This document shows, piece by piece, positions 23,936 through 55,342 of a stretch of 64,000 bases of DNA. The notes beneath the pieces are model-generated. The model worked only from the letters and a program-made list of their open reading frames with translations. It ran no database searches and had not been told where the DNA came from. The stretch comes from Dictyostelium discoideum. Taxonomy: Eukaryota. The position numbers and the translations under genes are program-made. The first letter of the stretch is position 1. Each line of letters opens with the position of its first letter. The stretch covers positions 928,001 through 992,000 of the forward strand of contig CM000152.2 of assembly GCA_000004695.1 (NCBI GenBank), written 5' to 3'.

Positions 23936-26731
23936 TTAATTACTTGCAAGTTGAACATCTTCATCTAAAGAATTTAAAATTTTAATTAATTTTCCAAAAG
24001 AATCTTTTTCTTGTTGAGTTTTTGGTTCAGATTCAGTTGACTCCATTTCTTCAGCCATATCTTGACGTTGTTTAATTAAATGACGATATAGACAAGCCAA
24101 TTCTTTTTCCAGTATGATTGGTGATTGTAAAGCACCAGGTGGACAATCAGCAGGAACTGTTGAAAGAGTATTAATGAATGATTTCATATTTTCCATATTA
24201 TCAATTACGAAACGATTCATATCTTTCATAAAGTCTTCTTTGTATTCACCAAATTCTACTTGATTTGCCAAATTTTGTAAGGTTTTTGCAATAAGAATGA
24301 GAGAACGAGTAGTTTTAATGCCTGGATGATCTGGCATTAGATCGAAAAGTTTTGGAGCTAAAATTGCAGGACAAAAGAAACGAAGGAAAATGAAACCACT
24401 TACGGCTGTATAACGTGTGATTTCATCCTTTGGATAACGTTGAACCACTTTATCTTGAATGGATTTGAATACCTCTCTCAATGGGCCAGGACAATTATTT
24501 ACACTAGAGAGGATAGCAGTAGTCATCTTTTTAACCCAACTTAAAAGATTCTTACAATTCTTTTTAATATCCTCACCCTTCTCCAATTTGGTTGGATCAA
24601 TTTCACAAGACTTTTTTGATGAGTAAATCTTTTTAATCAATGGTCCAATGGTTTGAGAGAGATATGGTATACCAATTAATTTCATGAAAAGGTCTACACT
24701 CTTGGTTGCAAGTGAATTACCACGGAAAATAATGTCTGGATTATTGGTTGAATCAATTTCATGATCGGTTAAAGATTTTAAAAGGTATAGACATTTTCCA
24801 GTTTTTTCAAATACTCTAATTAAATTGTTTGATACTGATTCACGATGTTTTGTAACCTTTCCTAACAATGTAATGGTATAAAGGTTCTCTTGTTGTAAGA
24901 GTTCCAATAATGGTTGATAACTTTGTAATGGTAAAACTACTTCTTCACTATATTTTAATTTTAATCTAATATCACCAAATTTATTATCTAATGTTTGTTT
25001 TGGATAAAGACATAACCATTGATCATTTGGTTTCTCTATATCAATATGAGATGCTAATACAATACCTTGACCAATGAAATATTGTTCATAACCATCTTTT
25101 AATGGATTCATAATATTTGTACCATTATTATGATGATGATGAAGATTATTTGATGAATCTATTACATTTATACTACCATTACTAATTAAAGAACTTGTAC
25201 TATTAATAGATGAACTTAAATTGATTGTTTCAGGTGGTGCTGGTCCACCTGATGTACCAGTTGATTTTGGTGTTGTTTGTGGTGTATTAGTTGATGCATT
25301 TGATGATGATCTTGTCTTTGAATCTGGTGTTTTAATATTATTTGATTGTGATGATGGTGAAATTGGTGTTGATGGTGTTGATGATGGTGTTGTTGTAGCG
25401 GTAGTATCATTAGATTTTTGATGTGATGATGGTGGTGGGGTTGATGGTATGAAACCACTACCACTGGCACTTGAATTTGTGCCTCTTGGTGATTTTAAAC
25501 CACTAATATCACCATCATCTGAAAAAGTTTTTGGTTCATATCTCCAAAGTGTAAAAGTAATACATTCAATTGAATCTTTTAATTCTCTAGTGATACCATT
25601 AGTTAAGGCATCTTGCCAAGCAATACCTTCTTCGTCAATAACTATATCACCTTTTTTTGAACGTACAGACCAATTAATGAATGGAGTTGTATTTGTATAA
25701 ACGTTTGAAATATTTTCAGTGCTAGTTGAGCCACCCATTGAAGCAGCAGACATTGAAGGCAATGGAGTTGCCAATGAGTGTGATAAATTTCTACCAAATA
25801 AAACTTTCCATTGAATATGACCAGGTTGTGATGGATCTGTTAATGATATTGGTTTAAAGTTAAATAATATTTGAATTTGTGGTACTTTTTTCGAACTCTG
25901 TGGTTGAGTTAAAGGAAACCAAAGCTCCCTCTCTTTTTGATCCTTTAGTGTATTGATTGGTATCACCAATTTACCTATATGCTCATCGTTTGAATACTTC
26001 TTTTCATCCATAACTGATAATACCAATTTTGCTGATGCTGGATCACTGATTTCCAATTGAAACTCCTCACACCAAAATGGATTCAATTTCTTTGGAATTG
26101 TACGTGTACGTTGTTTTTGTTTCTCCAATTGAACTGTACAATAGGGATCGGTTGTATCTGAAAATGTCATTAAATTTGGTGATGATATCTCTGTAAGTAA
26201 ATTTTGTGCACGTTTAAATGATTTACCATTCTTTACCATCTCTCTCTTTCTTAATCTTGCCTCTATTAAATTTCTTGCTTCAAATACTTTAACTGTTAAA
26301 TTACAATCTTTAGTTTTTTGTTGTCTAATTAATGATTCATATGTTGCTGATGGTGTCATTAATGATTTTCTAGACATTGTTGATGTCTCTATATTATTAT
26401 TATTATTATTTATTTCATTTATTGTGTTTGTAGTTGTAGTATTTCCATCTTTTATATTTAATAATGGTATTGATGTTTTAGATTGTATTTGTTGTTGTTC
26501 TATTATAATATCATTTTTAATTTCAAATTCTAAAATTTTTTTTTTAATATTGATTTTTTTTTTTTTTTTTTTTTTTTGATATTTGTGTGTTAAAATTTGT
26601 TTATGTGTTTAAAATTTTATTTTATTTTATTTTTTTTTTTTTTTTGTGTGTTTAAAATTTTTTTTTTTTTTTTTTTATTATATACACTTACCATTAATAG
26701 TATTTTCGTTTACTGTTAATGATTCCATCAT
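23936..26731 (-). CDS. C2-domain Ras GTPase-activating protein. Two exons: a 40-nt micro-exon at 26731..26692 and the main exon 26529..23936.
   Basis: N-terminal C2-like region (VKVFEARNL ... DPYCTVQL ... FQLEISD). S/T/P-rich linker. RasGAP catalytic core with arginine-finger motif FRGNSLATKSVDLFMKLIG, then ILAPKLFDLM. Exon 1 reads MMESLTVNENTIN, with GTAAGT donor and TTTTAG acceptor, phase 1+2 giving GAA. Confidence 0.75.
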
Positions 26732-30590: not shown

Positions 30591-31759
30591 TTTTCTTTGA
30601 GTGTGTCCATCGAGAGAACTTACGTATAGAAGAAAATAAAAGGTGTGGGTTATAACAATATAATGTATTTTTATTTATTTTTCATCACTTTTTTTTTTTT
30701 TTTTTTTTTTTCAATACAAATTAAATAAAATAAAAATAATAAATAAAACGATAAAAAATAAAAAAATATGTACGATAAAAATAAACCAAAATATAAAATA
30801 TAAAAATATAAAAATATAAAAATATAAATAACTACATTATAAACCCAACCATTTGTCATATTTATAAATATTTTAACTTCTCTATGAACCTTAATAAAAT
30901 GACAAAATAACGAAACCTGCACTTTTTCTATTTTAATATTAATATAGAGCGTGTACTCTTATTTTTAAATAAATCATTGGAGAGAAGACTTAAATATTTT
31001 ATAAAACGAATTTTTTTTGCAATAACTGTTTTTTATTTTCCAGAAATCATTTTTATAATTTTTTAATTATTATTTTTTTTACTTTTTTTTTTTTATTTTT
31101 TTATTTTTTATTATTTTATAATTTTTTATTTATTTATTTTTTTTTTTTTTTCAATAATCGCCAATGATTTTTAAATTAAAATCATTCATTCGATAATTTG
31201 AATAAACAAACAAAGAAAAAAAAAAAAAAAAAAACAATAAATAAAAATAAATAATAAAAATAGAAATAAATAATCAAAAAAAAAAAAAATTATAATAATT
31301 TAATCAAAAAAAAAAATTAATTTAGATTTGTAAAAATATTTTTTTTTACCAGCTGATCTAAATTCGTAATTAAATTTTTATTTTTTTCAATTTTTATTTT
31401 TTTTTTTATTTTTGTCGAAAAAAAAAAAAAAAACGAATAAAATAAGGGCATTCATTAATTTTTTCTTTTTTTTCTATAATTATTTTTTAAAAATAAAAAA
31501 AAAAAATTTTTTTTTTTTTTTATTCCACTCCGATTGTCACCTGCCATTCCATTTTATTTATTATTATTTTTTTTTTTTATTTTTTATTTTTGTTTATTAA
31601 ATTCAATCAAAAAAAAAAAAAATTTAATAAAAATAATAAAAAAAAAATTATCCTCAAATTTATCTATGTCATTACCATCAAAATCATTCATACAATATTA
31701 CCAACATACTCAACATTTATAACAATAACATCAACATCAACAAATAAAATAGAAAAGAA

Positions 31760-32489
31760 ATGCCATCCCAAAGCAATAATGTTATTACATCTTCTACAGC
31801 CTCATCATCAATGAGTTCGTCATCCAATAGTTCTGATGCATCATCAACATCATCGTCAAACACCAACAATGCACATTCCTCCAACAACCAATTTGTGAGT
31901 GGCCAATTAAATTTAGTTGGAAATACTCACACAAAAATTAATGATAATTATGAAATTATTTCAAAAATAGGTGAAGGTATTTCAGGGTAAGTTTTTTTTT
32001 TTTCTTTTTTTTCCTTCTTTTTTTTTCTAAACAATTATTAATTTTTTTTTTTTATTATTTTTTTTTTATTTTTATTTTTTTTTATTTTTAGATCTGTATT
32101 TAAAGCAATTAAAAAAGGTACAGAAGAAATGGTTGCACTTAAAAATTTTAAAGGTTGGACTGAAGGTGATAGAGCCTCAAAGGAAGAATGTTCATTATTA
32201 CAACAATTAAGACATATTCCATATATTACACCAGTCATCGATATCTATACAAATTTTGAAACCTCAGAGTATATCATTGTATTTCCATACTTTGAACATG
32301 ATCTCTCTGGTCTTTTAAGTGAACATAGACTATCAATTCCACAAGTTAAATGTTATTTCAAACAATTATTAGAGGGTATAAATGAAATTCATAATGCTGG
32401 TGTTATGCACAGAGATATTAAAGGTAATTTATTATTATTATTATTATTATATTTCTCATTTTTTTTTATTATTTTTTATTTGTTTTCTC

Positions 32490-32527
<38 letters not shown>

Positions 32528-34183
32528 ATCAAAAAAAAAAACAATGGTATTTTCATAAAAAAACAAAAAAAAACGTTCACCCCCCAACTGACATTCAACT
32601 TCAATTTTATTTTTTTTTATTTTTTTATTTTTCCCAAATTTCCGTTTTTTTTTTTTTTTTTTTTTTCGCCAAATTTTTTGATTTTTTTATTTTAATTTTT
32701 TTTTAATTTTTTTTTATATAGCTGCAAATTTACTTGTAAATAATAAAGGATCATTATTTATTGGTGATTTAGGTACAGCAACATCATATACAAAAAGATC
32801 AGTATTTTCAAGTAAAGTTGTAACATTATGGTACAGAGCACCAGAATTATTATTGGGATCAACTCAATATGGACCAGAAATTGATATGTGGTCAATTGGT
32901 TGTGTTTTAATTGAATTAGTTACTTCACGTAACTTTTTACCAGGTAGTTCTGAACAACAACAGCTCGAGGCAATTTGTAAATTATGTGGTACACCAACTG
33001 ATGAAATTTGGCCAAACGTTTCTCAATTACAAAACTTTAATCAAATTTCACATTTACCAGTTTATCCAAGTAGATTAAGAACTGTTTTTAAAAAGTAATT
33101 ATTATTATTTATTATTATTTTTACATTTAAAAATATTCTATAAATTTATTTTATTAATTCATCTTTTTTTTTTTTAATAATTTTAATTTTAATTAAATTT
33201 TTAGCTTTTCAAATGATTTTATAGAATTATTAGAAGGTTTATTAACATTAAATCCAAAGAAAAGATTAACAGCTGAACAAGCATTACAATCACCATTTTT
33301 TACAAATCATCCATTACCATTTAAACCAGAGAATATGCCAGGTTATCAACCAATTCATGTTTTGGAAGCAGTTCAAAAGAGAGTTCAACAACAACAAGAA
33401 TTGGAACAACAAAAGAAACAAGAGGAACAAAAGAAACAACAAGAGGAACAAAAGAAATTAGAAGATCAAAAGAAACAAGAGGAACAAAAGAAACAAGAAG
33501 ATCTATTAAAGAGACAAAGATTGTTAAAGAGACAACAAGAATTAAAGAAACAACAAGATGAACAACGTCAACAAGAATTAATCAAAAAACAACAAGAACA
33601 AGAACAATTAAGATTAAAAGTTGAACATGAAAAACAAAGACAAGAACAAGAAAGATTAAGATTAATTCAACAAGAACAAGAAAGATTAAAAAGACAACAA
33701 CAAGAACATGAACAAAGATTACAAAGAGAACAACAACAACAATTAAATCAACTACAACAACAAAAAGAATCACCTTTAAATAATAGTTATGGTAAAATTA
33801 ATTTAAAGAGATCTTTAGATTTAGTTAATGATATTAGAAATTATTGTACAAGTGAAACTGAAAGTGAATATGAAAGTGATGAAGAGGACTTTTATACTGA
33901 AGAAGAAGTTGAAGATTATTCAAGTGATGAAGAAGATGATTATTATAATGCTCAATCAAATAAATCACTTTATACTCCAATTAAAGCAATGATTCAACAA
34001 CATAATAATAATCAACAACATCAACAACAATATCCATATAGTCAACAACAACAAGAACCAATTTCATCAAATCCATTTTTACAACCACCAAAGAAACAAA
34101 GAACTGCATCAACAGGTTTCAATAATAACAATGGTAATAATAATAATAACAATAATTTATCAACTCCACTCACTATTCATTAA
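31760..34183 (+). CDS. CDK-family (CDK9/CDK12-like) serine/threonine kinase with a long C-terminal K/E/Q-rich coiled-coil tail. Four exons: 31760..31986, 32092..32423, 32722..33094 and 33205..34183.
   Basis: Kinase motifs: GEGISGSVFKA (G-loop), VALK, HRDIKAANLL (compare CDK9 HRDMKAANVL), TLWYRAPELLLG, DMWSIGCVLIEL, and a C-terminal LTAEQALQSPFF. All donors are GTAAGT or GTAATT and all acceptors are AG. Phases were checked at each junction. Confidence 0.75.
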
Positions 34184-34599
34184 GTTTTTTATAGTCGGTG
34201 ATAGTATGAATACTTTATTGTTTTAATCATCACACACATCAATTTCTCTTTTTTTTCTCCAAAAATATATTCTTAATCATGTCCGATCTTTTACCAATTT
34301 TATAAAAAAAAAAAAAAAAAAAAAAAATCAAAAAAAAAACCAAAAAAAAAAAAAAAAACCAAAAAAAAAAAAATCAAAAAAAAAAAAAATAATCTAATTA
34401 ATCTTGATCGATTTATCCAAATTTATCAAAATTGTTTTTCGCGCAAAAATGTATACAATATTAAAAAAGTAATGTACATATTTATACATACATAAATAGA
34501 TCATATAATCAACTATCTTTTGTATGTCAACCCTTCCCTCTTTTTTCTCTCTCAACTTCCCCTCTCTCCGATTGCCAATAATTCCACAACCCTCTCCAC

Positions 34600-34720
34600 T
34601 CAATCGATCAACCCATAAAATTTTTTCAAACACACACACACAACAATCAATCCGGAAATCCACAATCTTAAAAAATTATGGATGCATCTTTGCTCTCATT
34701 GGGTTTTTTTTCAATAAAAA
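34600..34720 (+). promoter_or_regulatory. Candidate small-ncRNA promoter. A DUSE-like motif AACCCATAA sits at about 34609-34617. About 60 nt downstream lies a short non-AT segment (ATGGATGCATCTTTGCTCTCATTGGG) that ends in a T8 run.
   Basis: The CCCATAA core matches the Dictyostelium upstream sequence element that sits about 60 nt upstream of class I RNA and snRNA genes. The T-run could be a Pol III terminator. No RNA family was assigned. Confidence 0.3.
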
Positions 34721-37452: not shown

Positions 37453-37914
37453 TTATTGTTTATAATCTATATTTGGATCTTTAATTTCCCCAGGATTATT
37501 ATTATCGTTATTATTATTGAAATGGTTATCTAAATTATCTAAATTATTAAAATTATTTTCTTCATCACGATTATCATTATCATTACCATTATCGTTATCA
37601 GTTGTAGTAGTAGTAGTAATTTCACCATAAGTATTTCTTCTTAAAAAACCTTGATCACCAACCCATTTCTTTTTATTGACAATATATTGTTTATTATTTT
37701 GTCTAATTAAAGTATCAATTAATAATTTCAAAGATTCAACCAATGAATCACAAACTTGTTCACTTTCACCCAATGATTTCATTGATAGAATAGTTGCCTC
37801 CATTGTTGAAATTCTATCAACTTGTGGTTGACTTCTAATTGTATTAAATAATGATTTAAATTTTAAATCTCCAAATTCTAAATGTATCTATTTTTAATTA
37901 AAAAAATTAGTGTA

Positions 37915-38005
<91 letters not shown>

Positions 38006-39016
38006 TAATAATAAAAAAAAAATAATAAAATAGTATACTCTTTTTATATCTTTTGGTATCCTTTTATTAAGTGATTTTGCATTATTCCAAGTACCATCAG
38101 CAATAATAATTGTTAATTTCTCTAATTTATCAATATCAGAACCATCTTTAAAATTAATTTTTTTAATTGAATCTGTAATTGTAGTAATATCATTCTCGAA
38201 ATCATCATCATTAAGATTTTCTTTTTCATTTATTTCATTATTATTTAAATTTTTTTTAAATAATTTATCATTATCTAAAATTATTGATTTTGATTTTAAA
38301 ACATCTTTAATATTAATTGAATCTTTTGAAGGGAATAAAACAAAAGTTGAATCTCTTGAAGATGATTCTAATTTTTTGAAAAATAATTCCTCATCTTGTT
38401 TTTCACCCATTATATAGATTTTTGAAGATGATGAAAAAGTTTGATTATTTATATTATTATAAATTGATGAAGAGTAGTCTGGTGACATTGTTGTTGAATG
38501 ACCACCACTGCCACTGCCACTACCACTACCGCCATCTCTATTCTTAAAATTACTTTTATCACAAAGTAATAATAATTTACCTGTATTACTTGCTCTACAC
38601 CATTCATTTGGATGAAATACAAAGATATATTCATGTTTTAAATCAACTTTATTCACTTTTGAACAAATACAATTTGTTAAGAGTAACCAACAATCATTAC
38701 ATTTTAAATCCTCTTTAAAGTATGAGAATTTTCTTTCCTTAACACCATCATTAATTTGAGTGTAAATTAATTTATTAACTTCTCTATTCTCTCCTGATAT
38801 CGGTTTAACAAATTCTTTTTTAAATTCCATTTTATTTAATCTTCTTTCATTATTAATTTCTTTTCTAAATTTTCTTTTAATTTCATTATTACCATTTTCA
38901 TTTTCATTTTCATTTTGAATTGTTGATGTTAAATTTTGTATTGGTGGTGTTGAATACATAATATTTGTTTGTTTTAGTTTTGAAATTGAATAATAAAGTT
39001 TACTTCTAACAAACAT
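37453..39016 (-). CDS. DTW-domain protein (DTWD/TapT-like tRNA-uridine aminocarboxypropyltransferase family). Two exons: 39016..38039 and 37887..37453.
   Basis: Signatures: CxxC...CxC cluster KCNDCWLLLTNCICSKV, the eponymous IIIADGTWNNAKSL, and the downstream family motif RISTMEATILSM. GTATAC donor at 38038..38033 and AATAG acceptor at 37889..37888. The intron is 151 bp and filled by (AAT)n. Confidence 0.7.
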
Positions 39017-53523: not shown

Positions 53524-55342
53524 TTATTGAAATAATACACTCTTTTCTAAAGTATACTTTAATATTTCTTCTTCATTATTTGTTGAAAGAATTTTTTCAA
53601 GTTCTTGTTGTTCTTTTTCTTGTTGTTCTTTTTCTTGTTGTTCTTTTTCTTGTTGTTCTTGTTGTTGTTGTTGTTGAATTTCAAAATCTTCTTTCTTTTC
53701 TAACGATACAATATATTTTTCATCATTTATAATTTCTTTATCATTTTCAGTATTGGTGATGGTGGAGGTGGTTTCTTTGTTAATGAAATTTTTTTCAATA
53801 ATTAATTTACCACCACCTTTAACGACATTAATTGGTAAATTTTTAACATTCATTGCAGTATCGAAAACATCTTTTGATATTGAAATGGTTTGATCGGTAA
53901 CTTTGGCAGCATGTTCACCAAATTTATAATTGACTAAATCAACGGTTGTTCCAGTGGCTTCATCATAGACCATACTAATACCATCACCAATTGCACCAAT
54001 GATTGAACCAATTGATTTAATTGTAGTTTTACCGAAATTTAATGCTTCATTTTTATAAATATTTTCTTCTTCTTTTTCTTCTTCTTCTTTTGATTTTTCA
54101 CATTCACATTCACAATCATCACCATCTGAAGGACGGACTAAATTAACAACACCACCACCAACGGTTGCAACTGCGCTCGATAATGAACCAATGATATAGG
54201 AAGAACCTTGTTTAGCATATGAGGTTACGCTTTTTACACCTTCGACTGTGTTTACAATTATTGGTGAAACCTCAGCAGGTTTTTCATTCTTTTCCATAGT
54301 TGACATTAATTTATAACCACCACCTCTTAAACTTAATGATATTATTGAAGATGCTGATAAAATACAAGCAGCAATAGTTTGTGAACCAGAGTCAACACCA
54401 TTTGTTGCAGATTTAATTGAATTGACAACAAAATCAACATCTTTACTTTTCTCTAAAATTGCTGTATCACCATCATCTTTAATTATTAATTTATCGTTTT
54501 CTTGAGAAATTTTTGTAGTAGTAATATCATCTTCTTCTCCATCACCATTTGCAGTAGTTGTAGTAGTAGTTGTAGTAGTAGTAGTAGTTGTAGTTGATTC
54601 ATTTTCATTTGGTAATGTAATTAAAAAAGAGATCAACTCTAACTTTCTTTCAAGAATATCAATATAAACCAATGGTATATTATGAGGGAACAATAAACCG
54701 AAATAATCTTCATCACTCTTTATAACGTAATGACCTTTTGAGTGAATTAAAATTGGTGTTTGTGAAGTTAAAATAAAAGTTTGATTTGAAATACCATTTA
54801 TACCTTGATTTTCATTATTCTTTAATGAATCTTTGAATTTAATTTGAATGTAATGAATTTTATCATTTGCTTTCTTTAAATAAAATATACCACTTCCAAT
54901 AATTTGTTTTTCAATTACAATTTTATTTGTTGACATCAAATGGCCACTTACACCAACGCCACCAACACCACCGCCAATCTTTGGGGAAGATGTTAATTCT
55001 AGTGCTCTTTTTTGTTCGATATTATCTTCTTTCCATTTATAAATTACACATTCTGATATGGTTAATAATGTTGTGTGTTGTTGATTTTCAGTGTTATTAT
55101 TTACATTTTCATCTTTTGATAAGATTCTTCCTTTAATTTCTATAGCTTTATTTCTTTTCTTTATTAATTCAAATCTTATATTTTCAATTTGACATTTTAT
55201 ATTTTCATTAATTTCTTTATCTAAATTTTAATAAAATAAAATAAAATAAAAATTAATTAATTTGTTTAGGAAAAAAAAAAAGATAAAAAAAAAAAAATTA
55301 ATTATTTTAATTTGTTTAAATAAAAAATTATAATTATAATTG

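Follow-up and report, generated by a model that had tools for sequence, protein, structure and literature searches.

A 64,000-nt stretch of Dictyostelium discoideum DNA (contig CM000152.2, positions 928,001 to 992,000 of the forward strand; hereafter the window, in whose numbering all coordinates are given) holds, at 31760-34183 on the + strand, a kinase gene that departs from the cyclin-dependent kinase (CDK) consensus in its DFG motif, its cyclin-binding helix and its T-loop, and whose product carries a long tail rich in K, E and Q. The question raised by this locus is whether such a protein is still a working CDK and, if so, of which kind. An exact-sequence look-up identified the 636-aa protein, residue for residue, as that of D. 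discoideum AX4 gene DDB_G0278487 (EAL68416.1, XP_642396.1, UniProt Q54Y06 / UniRef100_Q54Y06, DDB0229294), which is named clkB in dictyBase and appears under Q54Y06 with the title 'Probable cyclin-dependent serine/threonine-protein kinase DDB_G0278487'. The evidence set out below makes it likely that clkB is a catalytically competent, regulatorily divergent CDK-family member belonging to the CDK-DD1 subfamily.

Much about this gene was already public. In the kinome table that supplements Goldberg et al. 2006 (PMC1420674), the row for DDB0229294 reads CMGC / CDK / CDK-DD1 / kd / a (active), lists the motifs VALK / HRDIKAAN / DLG and carries a sequence exactly matching clkB, and CDK-DD1 is treated there as a separate CDK subfamily with three members (DDB0229294, DDB0229424 and DDB0230050). 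In dictyBase, clkB is described as 'similar to ... CRK7'. A mutant phenotype is in the literature as well: in PMC4605714, clkB is one of four genes, drawn from Nasser et al. 2013, that served as seeds for the response to Gram-negative bacteria, and PMC11882306 cites it for involvement in uptake, specifically of Gram-negative bacteria; clkB is reported by others as needed for growth on such bacteria. The gene, its classification, the DLG variant and the 'active' prediction have all been known since 2006, and the novelty implied by the earlier note on this DNA, made from the sequence alone, does not hold; because the DLG of clkB was tabulated in 2006, the finding is real but not new. The note had itself named a match to a characterised Dictyostelium cdk/crk gene with these features as grounds for refutation, and clkB is such a match. 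As a discovery it carries little weight, and the modest additions made here are the occurrence of CDK-DD1 beyond Dictyostelium, the stepwise loss of motifs and the reading of the tail.

The clkB gene and its kinase domain

The coding region consists of four exons that splice into an uninterrupted reading frame of 636 codons, as in the four-exon model of the earlier note. All three introns (105, 298 and 110 nt) are bounded by canonical GT-AG junctions and have a GC content of 5-14% versus 27-34% in the exons, i.e., the arrangement usual in Dictyostelium, in which AT-rich DNA is interrupted by short introns of extreme AT content. The Acytostelium orthologue (P0003) aligns unbroken over all three splice junctions. 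Intron 2, unusually long at 298 nt, contains at 32605-32704 a ~35-nt tandem repeat that has CGCCAAATTT(T)CCG as its core and is present in 2.4-2.8 copies set in poly-T; this repeat could be a regulatory element or the product of simple slippage. The features up to the end of the kinase domain are:

31760..34183, + strand: complete clkB coding region (spliced open reading frame (ORF) identical to XP_642396.1 / Q54Y06), with exons at 31760-31986, 32092-32423, 32722-33094 and 33205-34183
31760..31930, + strand: Ser/Asn-rich N-terminus of low complexity (residues 1-57), for which disorder is predicted (AlphaFold2 (AF2) predicted local distance difference test score (pLDDT) <50; strain indels/substitutions at residues 27 and 30)
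31949..33301, + strand: protein kinase domain (residues 64-343, exons 1-4; Pfam PF00069, E = 3.8e-59, 200.7 bits; AF2 pLDDT >90)
32171..32188, + strand: alpha-C segment RASKEE (R103-E108), replacing PITAIRE/PSTAIRE (from alignment)
32766..32774, + strand: DLG motif (D202 L203 G204, within FIGDLGTA; codons GAT TTA GGT), wholly inside exon 3
32808..32810, + strand: S216, at the position of the T-loop activating Thr (CDK2 T160 / CDK12 T893; HMMER alignment to CDK12, MAFFT alignment and regular-expression survey)

The kinase domain is of CDK type, as the earlier note had proposed on the basis of its motifs: next to the Pfam match, the top matches in sequence (PDB) and structure (Foldseek) searches were CDK12, CDK13 and CDK2. 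Each of the motifs it had quoted was found, i.e., HRDIKAAN (residues 182-189), FIGDLGTA, the CMGC/CDK-type P+1 segment TLWYRAPELL (VVTLWYRAPELLLG; VVTLWYRAPELL) and PFF, the latter as SPFF (340-343). The catalytic set is complete and comprises the Gly loop GEGISGSV (71-78), the Lys (K93), the alpha-C Glu (E108), H182-R183-D184, the Asn (N189), the Asp of the DFG motif (D202) and A226-P227-E228, so that every feature by which kinase competence was judged is present in clkB.

The departures from consensus concern regulation. The substitution of DLG for DFG was confirmed, and so was the divergence of the cyclin-binding helix: after a 3-residue deletion, alpha-C reads RASKEE where CDKs read P(S/I)TA(I/L)RE, with the cyclin-contact Ile and Arg replaced by K106 and E107, respectively, and with the catalytic Glu kept (E108, invariant throughout a 65-sequence alignment). 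A PSTAIRE-type cyclin-binding helix (xxTAxRE) is absent from clkB, and the dictyostelid orthologues carry the same change. In CDK12, the PITAIRE Arg (R773) binds cyclin K (PMC3973122). The charge reversal at E107 would remove the equivalent of that residue, and this reversal at a cyclin-contact Arg suggests that the partner of clkB is a co-diverged cyclin or something else.

Similarly, the T-loop is altered (FSSKVVTLWYR in clkB vs. YTNKVITLWYR in CDK12). The earlier claim that clkB has no T-loop threonine stood insofar as the activating position is not Thr, although a phosphorylatable Ser (S216) sits there. In CDK12, the phosphorylated T893 binds R858 (the HRD Arg) and R882 (the DFGLAR Arg) (PMC3973122). 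In clkB, one of the three phosphate-clamp arginines is kept (the HRD Arg, R183), the other two being replaced by E107 and by T207, which lies at the CDK2-R150 position (DFG+3, i.e., the DFGLAR Arg); a T-loop Thr held by three arginines is not found in this protein. The Gly loop, moreover, has no counterpart of the Wee1 target residues T14/Y15. The canonical phospho-threonine clamp is therefore probably not the route by which clkB would be activated, and with E107 and T207 in place of the clamp arginines and without T14/Y15, classical regulation by the CDK-activating kinase (CAK) and Wee1 appears unlikely. Finally, the alpha-D glycine typical of kinases of the C-terminal domain (CTD) of RNA polymerase II is retained as G149, and such a glycine has been found to correlate with a C-terminal HE-motif extension that contacts the nucleotide (PMC3973122).

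The C-terminal extension and the tail

Downstream of the kinase domain, the following features were delimited:

33308..33382, + strand: C-terminal kinase extension (residues 346-370, HPLPFKPENMPGYQPIHVLEAVQKR), homologous to the 'HE motif' region of CDK12/CDK9/Ctk1/Bur1, the motif here being H362-V363 (CDK12 and multi-sequence alignment)
33359..33754, + strand: K/E/Q/R-rich predicted helical spacer (residues 363-494; Tandem Repeats Finder (TRF), charge-pair/heptad analysis and AF2)
33803..33946, + strand: conserved tail module, consisting of LKRSLDLVNDIRNYCTSE (residues 511-528) followed by an acidic Ser/Asp/Glu/Tyr cluster (~527-558); common to P0003, with DDIRNYCTSD in P0004
34070..34105, + strand: conserved C-terminal motif NPFLQPPKKQRT (NPFLQPPKKQR; residues 600-611); NPFLQPAKKQRT in P0003 and NPYLQPPKRKKLK (NPYLQPPKRKK) in P0005

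The post-kinase segment PENMPGYQPIHVLEAVQKR can be aligned to the extension of CDK12 (PPDLPHWQDCHELWSK) as well as to HE[FYW]-type motifs in Ctk1, Bur1 and CDKC-like sequences. With G149 and H362 kept, docking of this extension close to the ATP site is probably preserved, although the Glu of the HE motif has become Val and the polybasic cluster comes down to K369-R370.

The segment that follows is of strongly biased composition (34% Q, 19% E, 15% K, 9% R and 12% L over residues 363-500) and is partly repetitive at the DNA level, as TRF revealed an 18-nt period (corresponding to the 6-aa unit EQKKQE) at 33408-33498 (4.9 copies, 81% matches, score of 127), next to larger periods of 36 and 57; the DNA encoding the spacer is 61% A. 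AF2 predicted two helices (363-395 and 400-494; pLDDT ~86-92), with disorder over residues 1-57 and 497-636. Residues ~375-410 include a single hydrophobic one, and opposite charges are paired at i/i+3 and i/i+4 with a frequency of 0.7-0.86 pairs per residue, a sequence signature like that of a charged single alpha-helix (SAH), whereas residues 410-494 are of mixed character with scattered Leu. A canonical coiled coil was not supported, since the best-register hydrophobic occupancy of the a/d positions was 0.12-0.50 in all 28-residue windows over residues 363-500. Of the KEQ-repeat coiled-coil or single-helix tail announced in the earlier note, the repeat, the predicted helices and the SAH-like stretch were thus recovered, and the coiled coil was not.

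In its scarcity of hydrophobics (375-410), its dense opposite charges and the long isolated helices predicted by AF2, the tract resembles known SAH segments, a likeness of sequence and prediction. It differs from them in its 18-nt tandem-repeat origin and in its absence from the orthologues. One-third Gln, moreover, would be more than expected for a typical SAH of the E/K/R type. To compare the linker that joins the HV motif to the conserved DIRNYCTS, the two orthologues in which it could be delimited (P0003 and P0004) were set beside clkB:

D. discoideum clkB: 149 aa, with 17% E and 15% K
Acytostelium P0003: 68 aa, with 0% E, rich in Q, T, S and N
P0004: 91 aa, with 0% E and 22% P

The KEQ helix is most readily understood as a variable linker that was enlarged by repeat expansion at the level of the species, i.e., residues 363-494 would form a D. 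discoideum-specific, repeat-generated spacer at a place where the orthologues have a disordered Q/T/P-rich linker. Expansions of this kind are probably common in the D. discoideum genome. A second K/E/Q tract (QQEKEQQEKEQ; …QQQQQQEQQEKEQQEKEQQEKEQ) was observed at 53608-53727 (- strand), in another gene and frame ~20 kb away, showing that such charged repeats recur within the 64-kb window.

A second D. discoideum assembly (P0002) encodes a 646-aa clkB allele with 19 differences from the window protein, all outside the kinase domain, which is 100% identical. These indels and substitutions (residues 27-30, 452-495, 554, 580-583 and 622) affect the low-complexity N-terminus, the second of the tail helices (substitutions and Q indels) and the Q/N runs near the C-terminus. 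Both strains share the 6-aa EQKKQE repeat block without change.

An alternative holds that the KEQ tail, instead of being a neutral expansion, has a function essential to clkB, either in dimerisation as a coiled coil or as an SAH ruler. It draws on the confidence with which both long helices were predicted, on the SAH-like charge pairing of residues 375-410 and on the constancy of the repeat block between the two strains. Nevertheless, we regard it as unlikely, as the a/d occupancy is poor for a coiled coil, the linkers of P0003 and P0004 are short, Glu-free and rich in Q, T, S or P, the tract arises from an 18-nt tandem repeat in A-rich DNA, its second helix varies between strains and a similar tract is present in an unrelated gene nearby.

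Within the tail as a whole, a species-level expansion of the linker leaves the short conserved motifs as better functional candidates than the KEQ helix. The constrained elements would be DIRNYCTSE with the acidic module, and NPFLQPPKKQR, with a likely role in docking or nuclear targeting; NPFLQPPKKQR in particular is a candidate nuclear-localisation or docking motif. The acidic S/D/E cluster and the poly-N/Q runs that the earlier note had described are indeed present in the tail. A protein search with the conserved tail alone (residues 498-614; E <= 0.01) yielded no match, of which composition filtering is the probable cause.

Relatives of clkB and the apparent order of motif change

Apart from the window protein, DLG was found in the second D. 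discoideum strain (P0002), in orthologues P0003, P0004, P0005, P0007 and P0008, and in the distant P0017, while DFG was retained in P0006, in Arcella P0100 and in most of the more distant relatives. The dictyostelid orthologues (Acytostelium P0003/P0008, Cavenderia P0007 and P0004) and P0005, all DLG-bearing, share (G/S)ISG, (R/K)A(S/A)KEE, DLGTAT and FS(S/N/D)K. P0006 and Arcella P0100 have an SK(D/E)E-type helix but DFG, and the Gly loop of P0006 reads GEGTAG versus GEGISG in the DLG-bearing orthologues. The next group outward (P0009, P0010, P0015 and Balamuthia P0044) has SFTA(I/V/L)RE, DFGLAT and FSTN. In a survey of 118 relatives, Ser stood at the T-loop position in 23 and Thr at the R150 position in 29, with DMG, DVG or DLG in a few others. 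The order of change appears to have been loss of the DFG+3 Arg and of the T-loop Thr in favor of Ser (in most of the clade), then of the PSTAIRE helix, and finally replacement of the DFG Phe by Leu.

Two side observations concern these sequences. Firstly, in P0012, P0017, P0059, P0061 and P0102 (metagenome/Logan), MMT, MAT or LMT is preceded by DMG, DVG or DLG, and the T-loop position is taken by Pro, Asp or Ser; the DFG Phe may be generally relaxed among clkB relatives, beyond the clkB lineage. Secondly, Acytostelium subglobosum P0008 (212 aa, partial, on another contig than P0003) carries GISG, RASREE and DLG, and may represent either a paralogue or an incomplete gene model.

The clkB kinase domain is 77% identical to that of the Acytostelium orthologue; this value, the complete identity between strains and the variability of the flanks together indicate strong purifying selection on the domain. 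Leucine in place of the DFG Phe is also known from the TGF-beta/BMP type I receptors, in the manner of Nek6/Nek7. In Nek7, a natural DLG kinase, the L180F mutant keeps wild-type activity (PMC2807034), and RIPK1 carries DLG as well (PMC9554302). In these kinases, Leu takes the regulatory-spine position of the Phe and catalysis is retained, as we propose for clkB: Leu203 would occupy the spine position as in Nek7 and RIPK1, and because it would fill this position as in active DLG kinases, clkB is probably active. Nek6/Nek7, RIPK1 and the type I receptors nevertheless belong to unrelated kinase groups (NEK, TKL), so that the shared Leu is convergent and uninformative on substrate or regulation.

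This evidence also bears on the possibility that clkB is a pseudokinase or scaffold whose catalysis has decayed, as might be read from the DLG, the altered alpha-C and the lost T-loop Thr, i.e., from several regulatory motifs being off the CDK consensus together. All residues needed for phosphotransfer (the G-loop glycines, K93, E108, HRD, N189, D202 and APE) are intact, however, and the kinase domain is under strong purifying selection between variable flanks, kinases with a natural DLG, Nek7 and RIPK1 among them, are active (PMC2807034, PMC9554302) and clkB was predicted to be active in the 2006 kinome (PMC1420674), all of which makes decay very improbable.

As to which kind of CDK is concerned, the PDB sequence search ranked CDK12 first (218 bits), followed by CDK13 (212), Ctk1 (202), CDK7 (192), CDK11 (190), CDK9 (187) and CDK2 (185), and all 60 matches listed were CDKs or Ctk1. 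With the AF2 model of clkB, built on the 65-sequence alignment, the top Foldseek match was CDK12/cyclin K (4nst_A; TM score of 0.86, ~40% identity), and the best 50 matches were CDK12, CDK13 and cyclin-bound CDK2. A neighbour-joining (NJ) tree was built from 35 sequences over 312 columns with 500 bootstraps, using a simple distance in numpy code. It included the Dictyostelium CDKs from the Goldberg table, database matches, and human CDK2, CDK9 (exact versus PDB) and CDK12 (from the PDB-search alignment); Balamuthia P0044, which has the DFGLAT/FST motifs seen in CDK-DD1, was left out, as were P0012, P0017, P0059, P0061 and P0102.

In this tree, clkB joined Acytostelium P0003 (100%), then P0005 and P0006 (89%) and then Arcella P0100 (95%). 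The CDK-DD1 clade (98%) united the three Dictyostelium members with sequences of Physarum (P0018), Stereomyxa (P0015) and Arcella (P0100) and with two metagenomic ones, and lay inside a CDK9/CDK12/Bur1/Ctk1/plant-IBS1 supergroup (95%). The clade with DDB0229424 and DDB0230050, together with the table row bearing its exact sequence, identifies clkB as a CDK-DD1 member. As far as these indicative relationships go, clkB would belong to a branch of the transcription-type CDK group (CDK9/12/13, Bur1/Ctk1), and CDK-DD1 would occur across Amoebozoa instead of being restricted to Dictyostelium.

The other two Dictyostelium members, DDB0229424 and DDB0230050, share with clkB a Thr at the CDK2-R150 position. 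The T-loop position holds Ser in clkB and DDB0230050 and Ala in DDB0229424. Both differ from clkB in keeping DFG and in a differently shortened alpha-C (GxPVEVKYL), with the combination of DLG and RASKEE found in clkB alone of the three.

The likeness of clkB to CDK12, CDK13 and Ctk1 consists of the best sequence and structure matches, the kept alpha-D Gly and an alignable C-terminal extension (PGYQPIHVLEAV vs. PHWQDCHELWSK). Relative to CDK12, PITAIRE has become RASKEE (the cyclin K-contact Arg becoming Glu), DFGLAR has become DLGTAT, T893 corresponds to S216, HE reads HV and the polybasic cluster is K-R, and clkB is without RS or proline-rich arms. Judged by the features of the CRK7 subfamily, clkB has the corresponding best PDB matches, G149 and H362, but lacks PITAIRE, has Val for the Glu of HE, keeps K369-R370 as its only polybasic remnant and falls in a separate clade.

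The 'CDK9-like' label of the earlier note did not survive. By this account, clkB would be the Dictyostelium CDK9 (P-TEFb kinase) orthologue, pairing with cyclin T/K and phosphorylating the RNA polymerase II CTD. It is true that clkB lies in the 95% supergroup with CDK9, CDK12, Bur1 and Ctk1, that its HRDxKAAN resembles the HRDMKAAN of CDK9, and that it retains two traits typical of CTD kinases, the alpha-D glycine and a portion of the HE extension. Yet CDK9 scored below CDK12, CDK13, Ctk1, CDK7 and CDK11, and in the tree human CDK9 paired with Bur1-like fungal sequences, apart from clkB, with no sister relation between the two. Human CDK12, for its part, paired with the Dictyostelium 'Cdk9' DDB0229428 (50% bootstrap). 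Furthermore, the CDK9 subfamily was stated to be absent from Dictyostelium, and DDB0229428, which is a different gene from clkB, was placed in the CRK7 subfamily (PMC1420674). Search score, tree position and the lack of a PITALRE helix all separate clkB from the CDK9 subfamily, and with the PITALRE helix, the cyclin-binding Arg, the T-loop Thr and the polybasic cluster all altered, CDK9 orthology is extremely unlikely.

Finally, that the DLG or the loss of PSTAIRE is a splice-junction artefact of the gene model, as with the wrong exon 2/3 junction hiding a DFG that the earlier note had allowed for, deserves practically no credence, because RASKEE and DLG each lie within a single exon (the DLG codons wholly within exon 3, so that no splice choice can yield DFG), the junctions are canonical and the introns distinctly GC-poor, the protein equals the RefSeq and UniProt models, and orthologues of other genera read across the junction positions with the same motifs, DLG being present in every dictyostelid orthologue examined.

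For CDK-DD1 as a whole, a broader scenario can be sketched tentatively, although we hold it to be rather doubtful: that the subfamily comprises Amoebozoa-wide relatives of transcription-type CDKs that dismantled classical CDK control, with a T-loop Ser and no DFG+3 Arg across much of the clade, and with PSTAIRE lost first in the clkB lineage, where the T14/Y15 site was also lost and the DFG Phe afterwards. If true, clkB would be cyclin-independent or unconventionally partnered, tying transcription-type CDK chemistry to feeding on Gram-negative prey. With its ordered loss of CDK regulatory motifs and intact catalytic residues, the clkB lineage would offer a natural test case for drift from cyclin/CAK control.

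Several points weigh against the picture of clkB drawn here. S216 could be phosphorylated and then held by R183 together with other basic residues (K211, R212), and the KEQ helix, predicted by AF2 with high confidence, could still serve as a rigid spacer or mediate dimerisation. With regard to the short-range conservation of that helix, no D. purpureum or other close Dictyostelium orthologue was present among the best 120 kinase-domain matches. The NJ tree is distance-based and of limited sampling, its deep nodes being indicative only. The primary genetics behind the Gram-negative phenotype of clkB, reportedly those of Nasser et al. 2013, are known to us at second hand.

Flanking sequence and neighbouring genes

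The intergenic DNA downstream of the clkB stop codon is unusually C-rich for this genome at 34500-34650 (+ strand; …ccttccctc…ctcaacttcccctctctccgattgcc…ccctctccactcaatcgatcaaccc…), and upstream of clkB, at ~31528-31553, there is a related C-rich sequence of lesser length (ccactccgattgtcacctgccattcc). These patches flanking clkB may be promoter or untranslated region (UTR) elements.

Two other ORFs were observed on the opposite strand:

23936-26377, - strand: 813-aa single-exon ORF encoding a C2 domain (E = 1.8e-23) and, after it, a RasGAP domain (E = 1.8e-40), i.e., a C2-RasGAP gene that lies upstream of clkB at a distance of ~5 kb
37907-39016, - strand: 369-aa ORF with a DTW domain (E = 9e-23), ending in ~40 tyrosines (TAT repeats)

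The run of ~40 Tyr at the end of the DTW ORF probably reflects read-through into an intron or the 3′ flank and not real protein.

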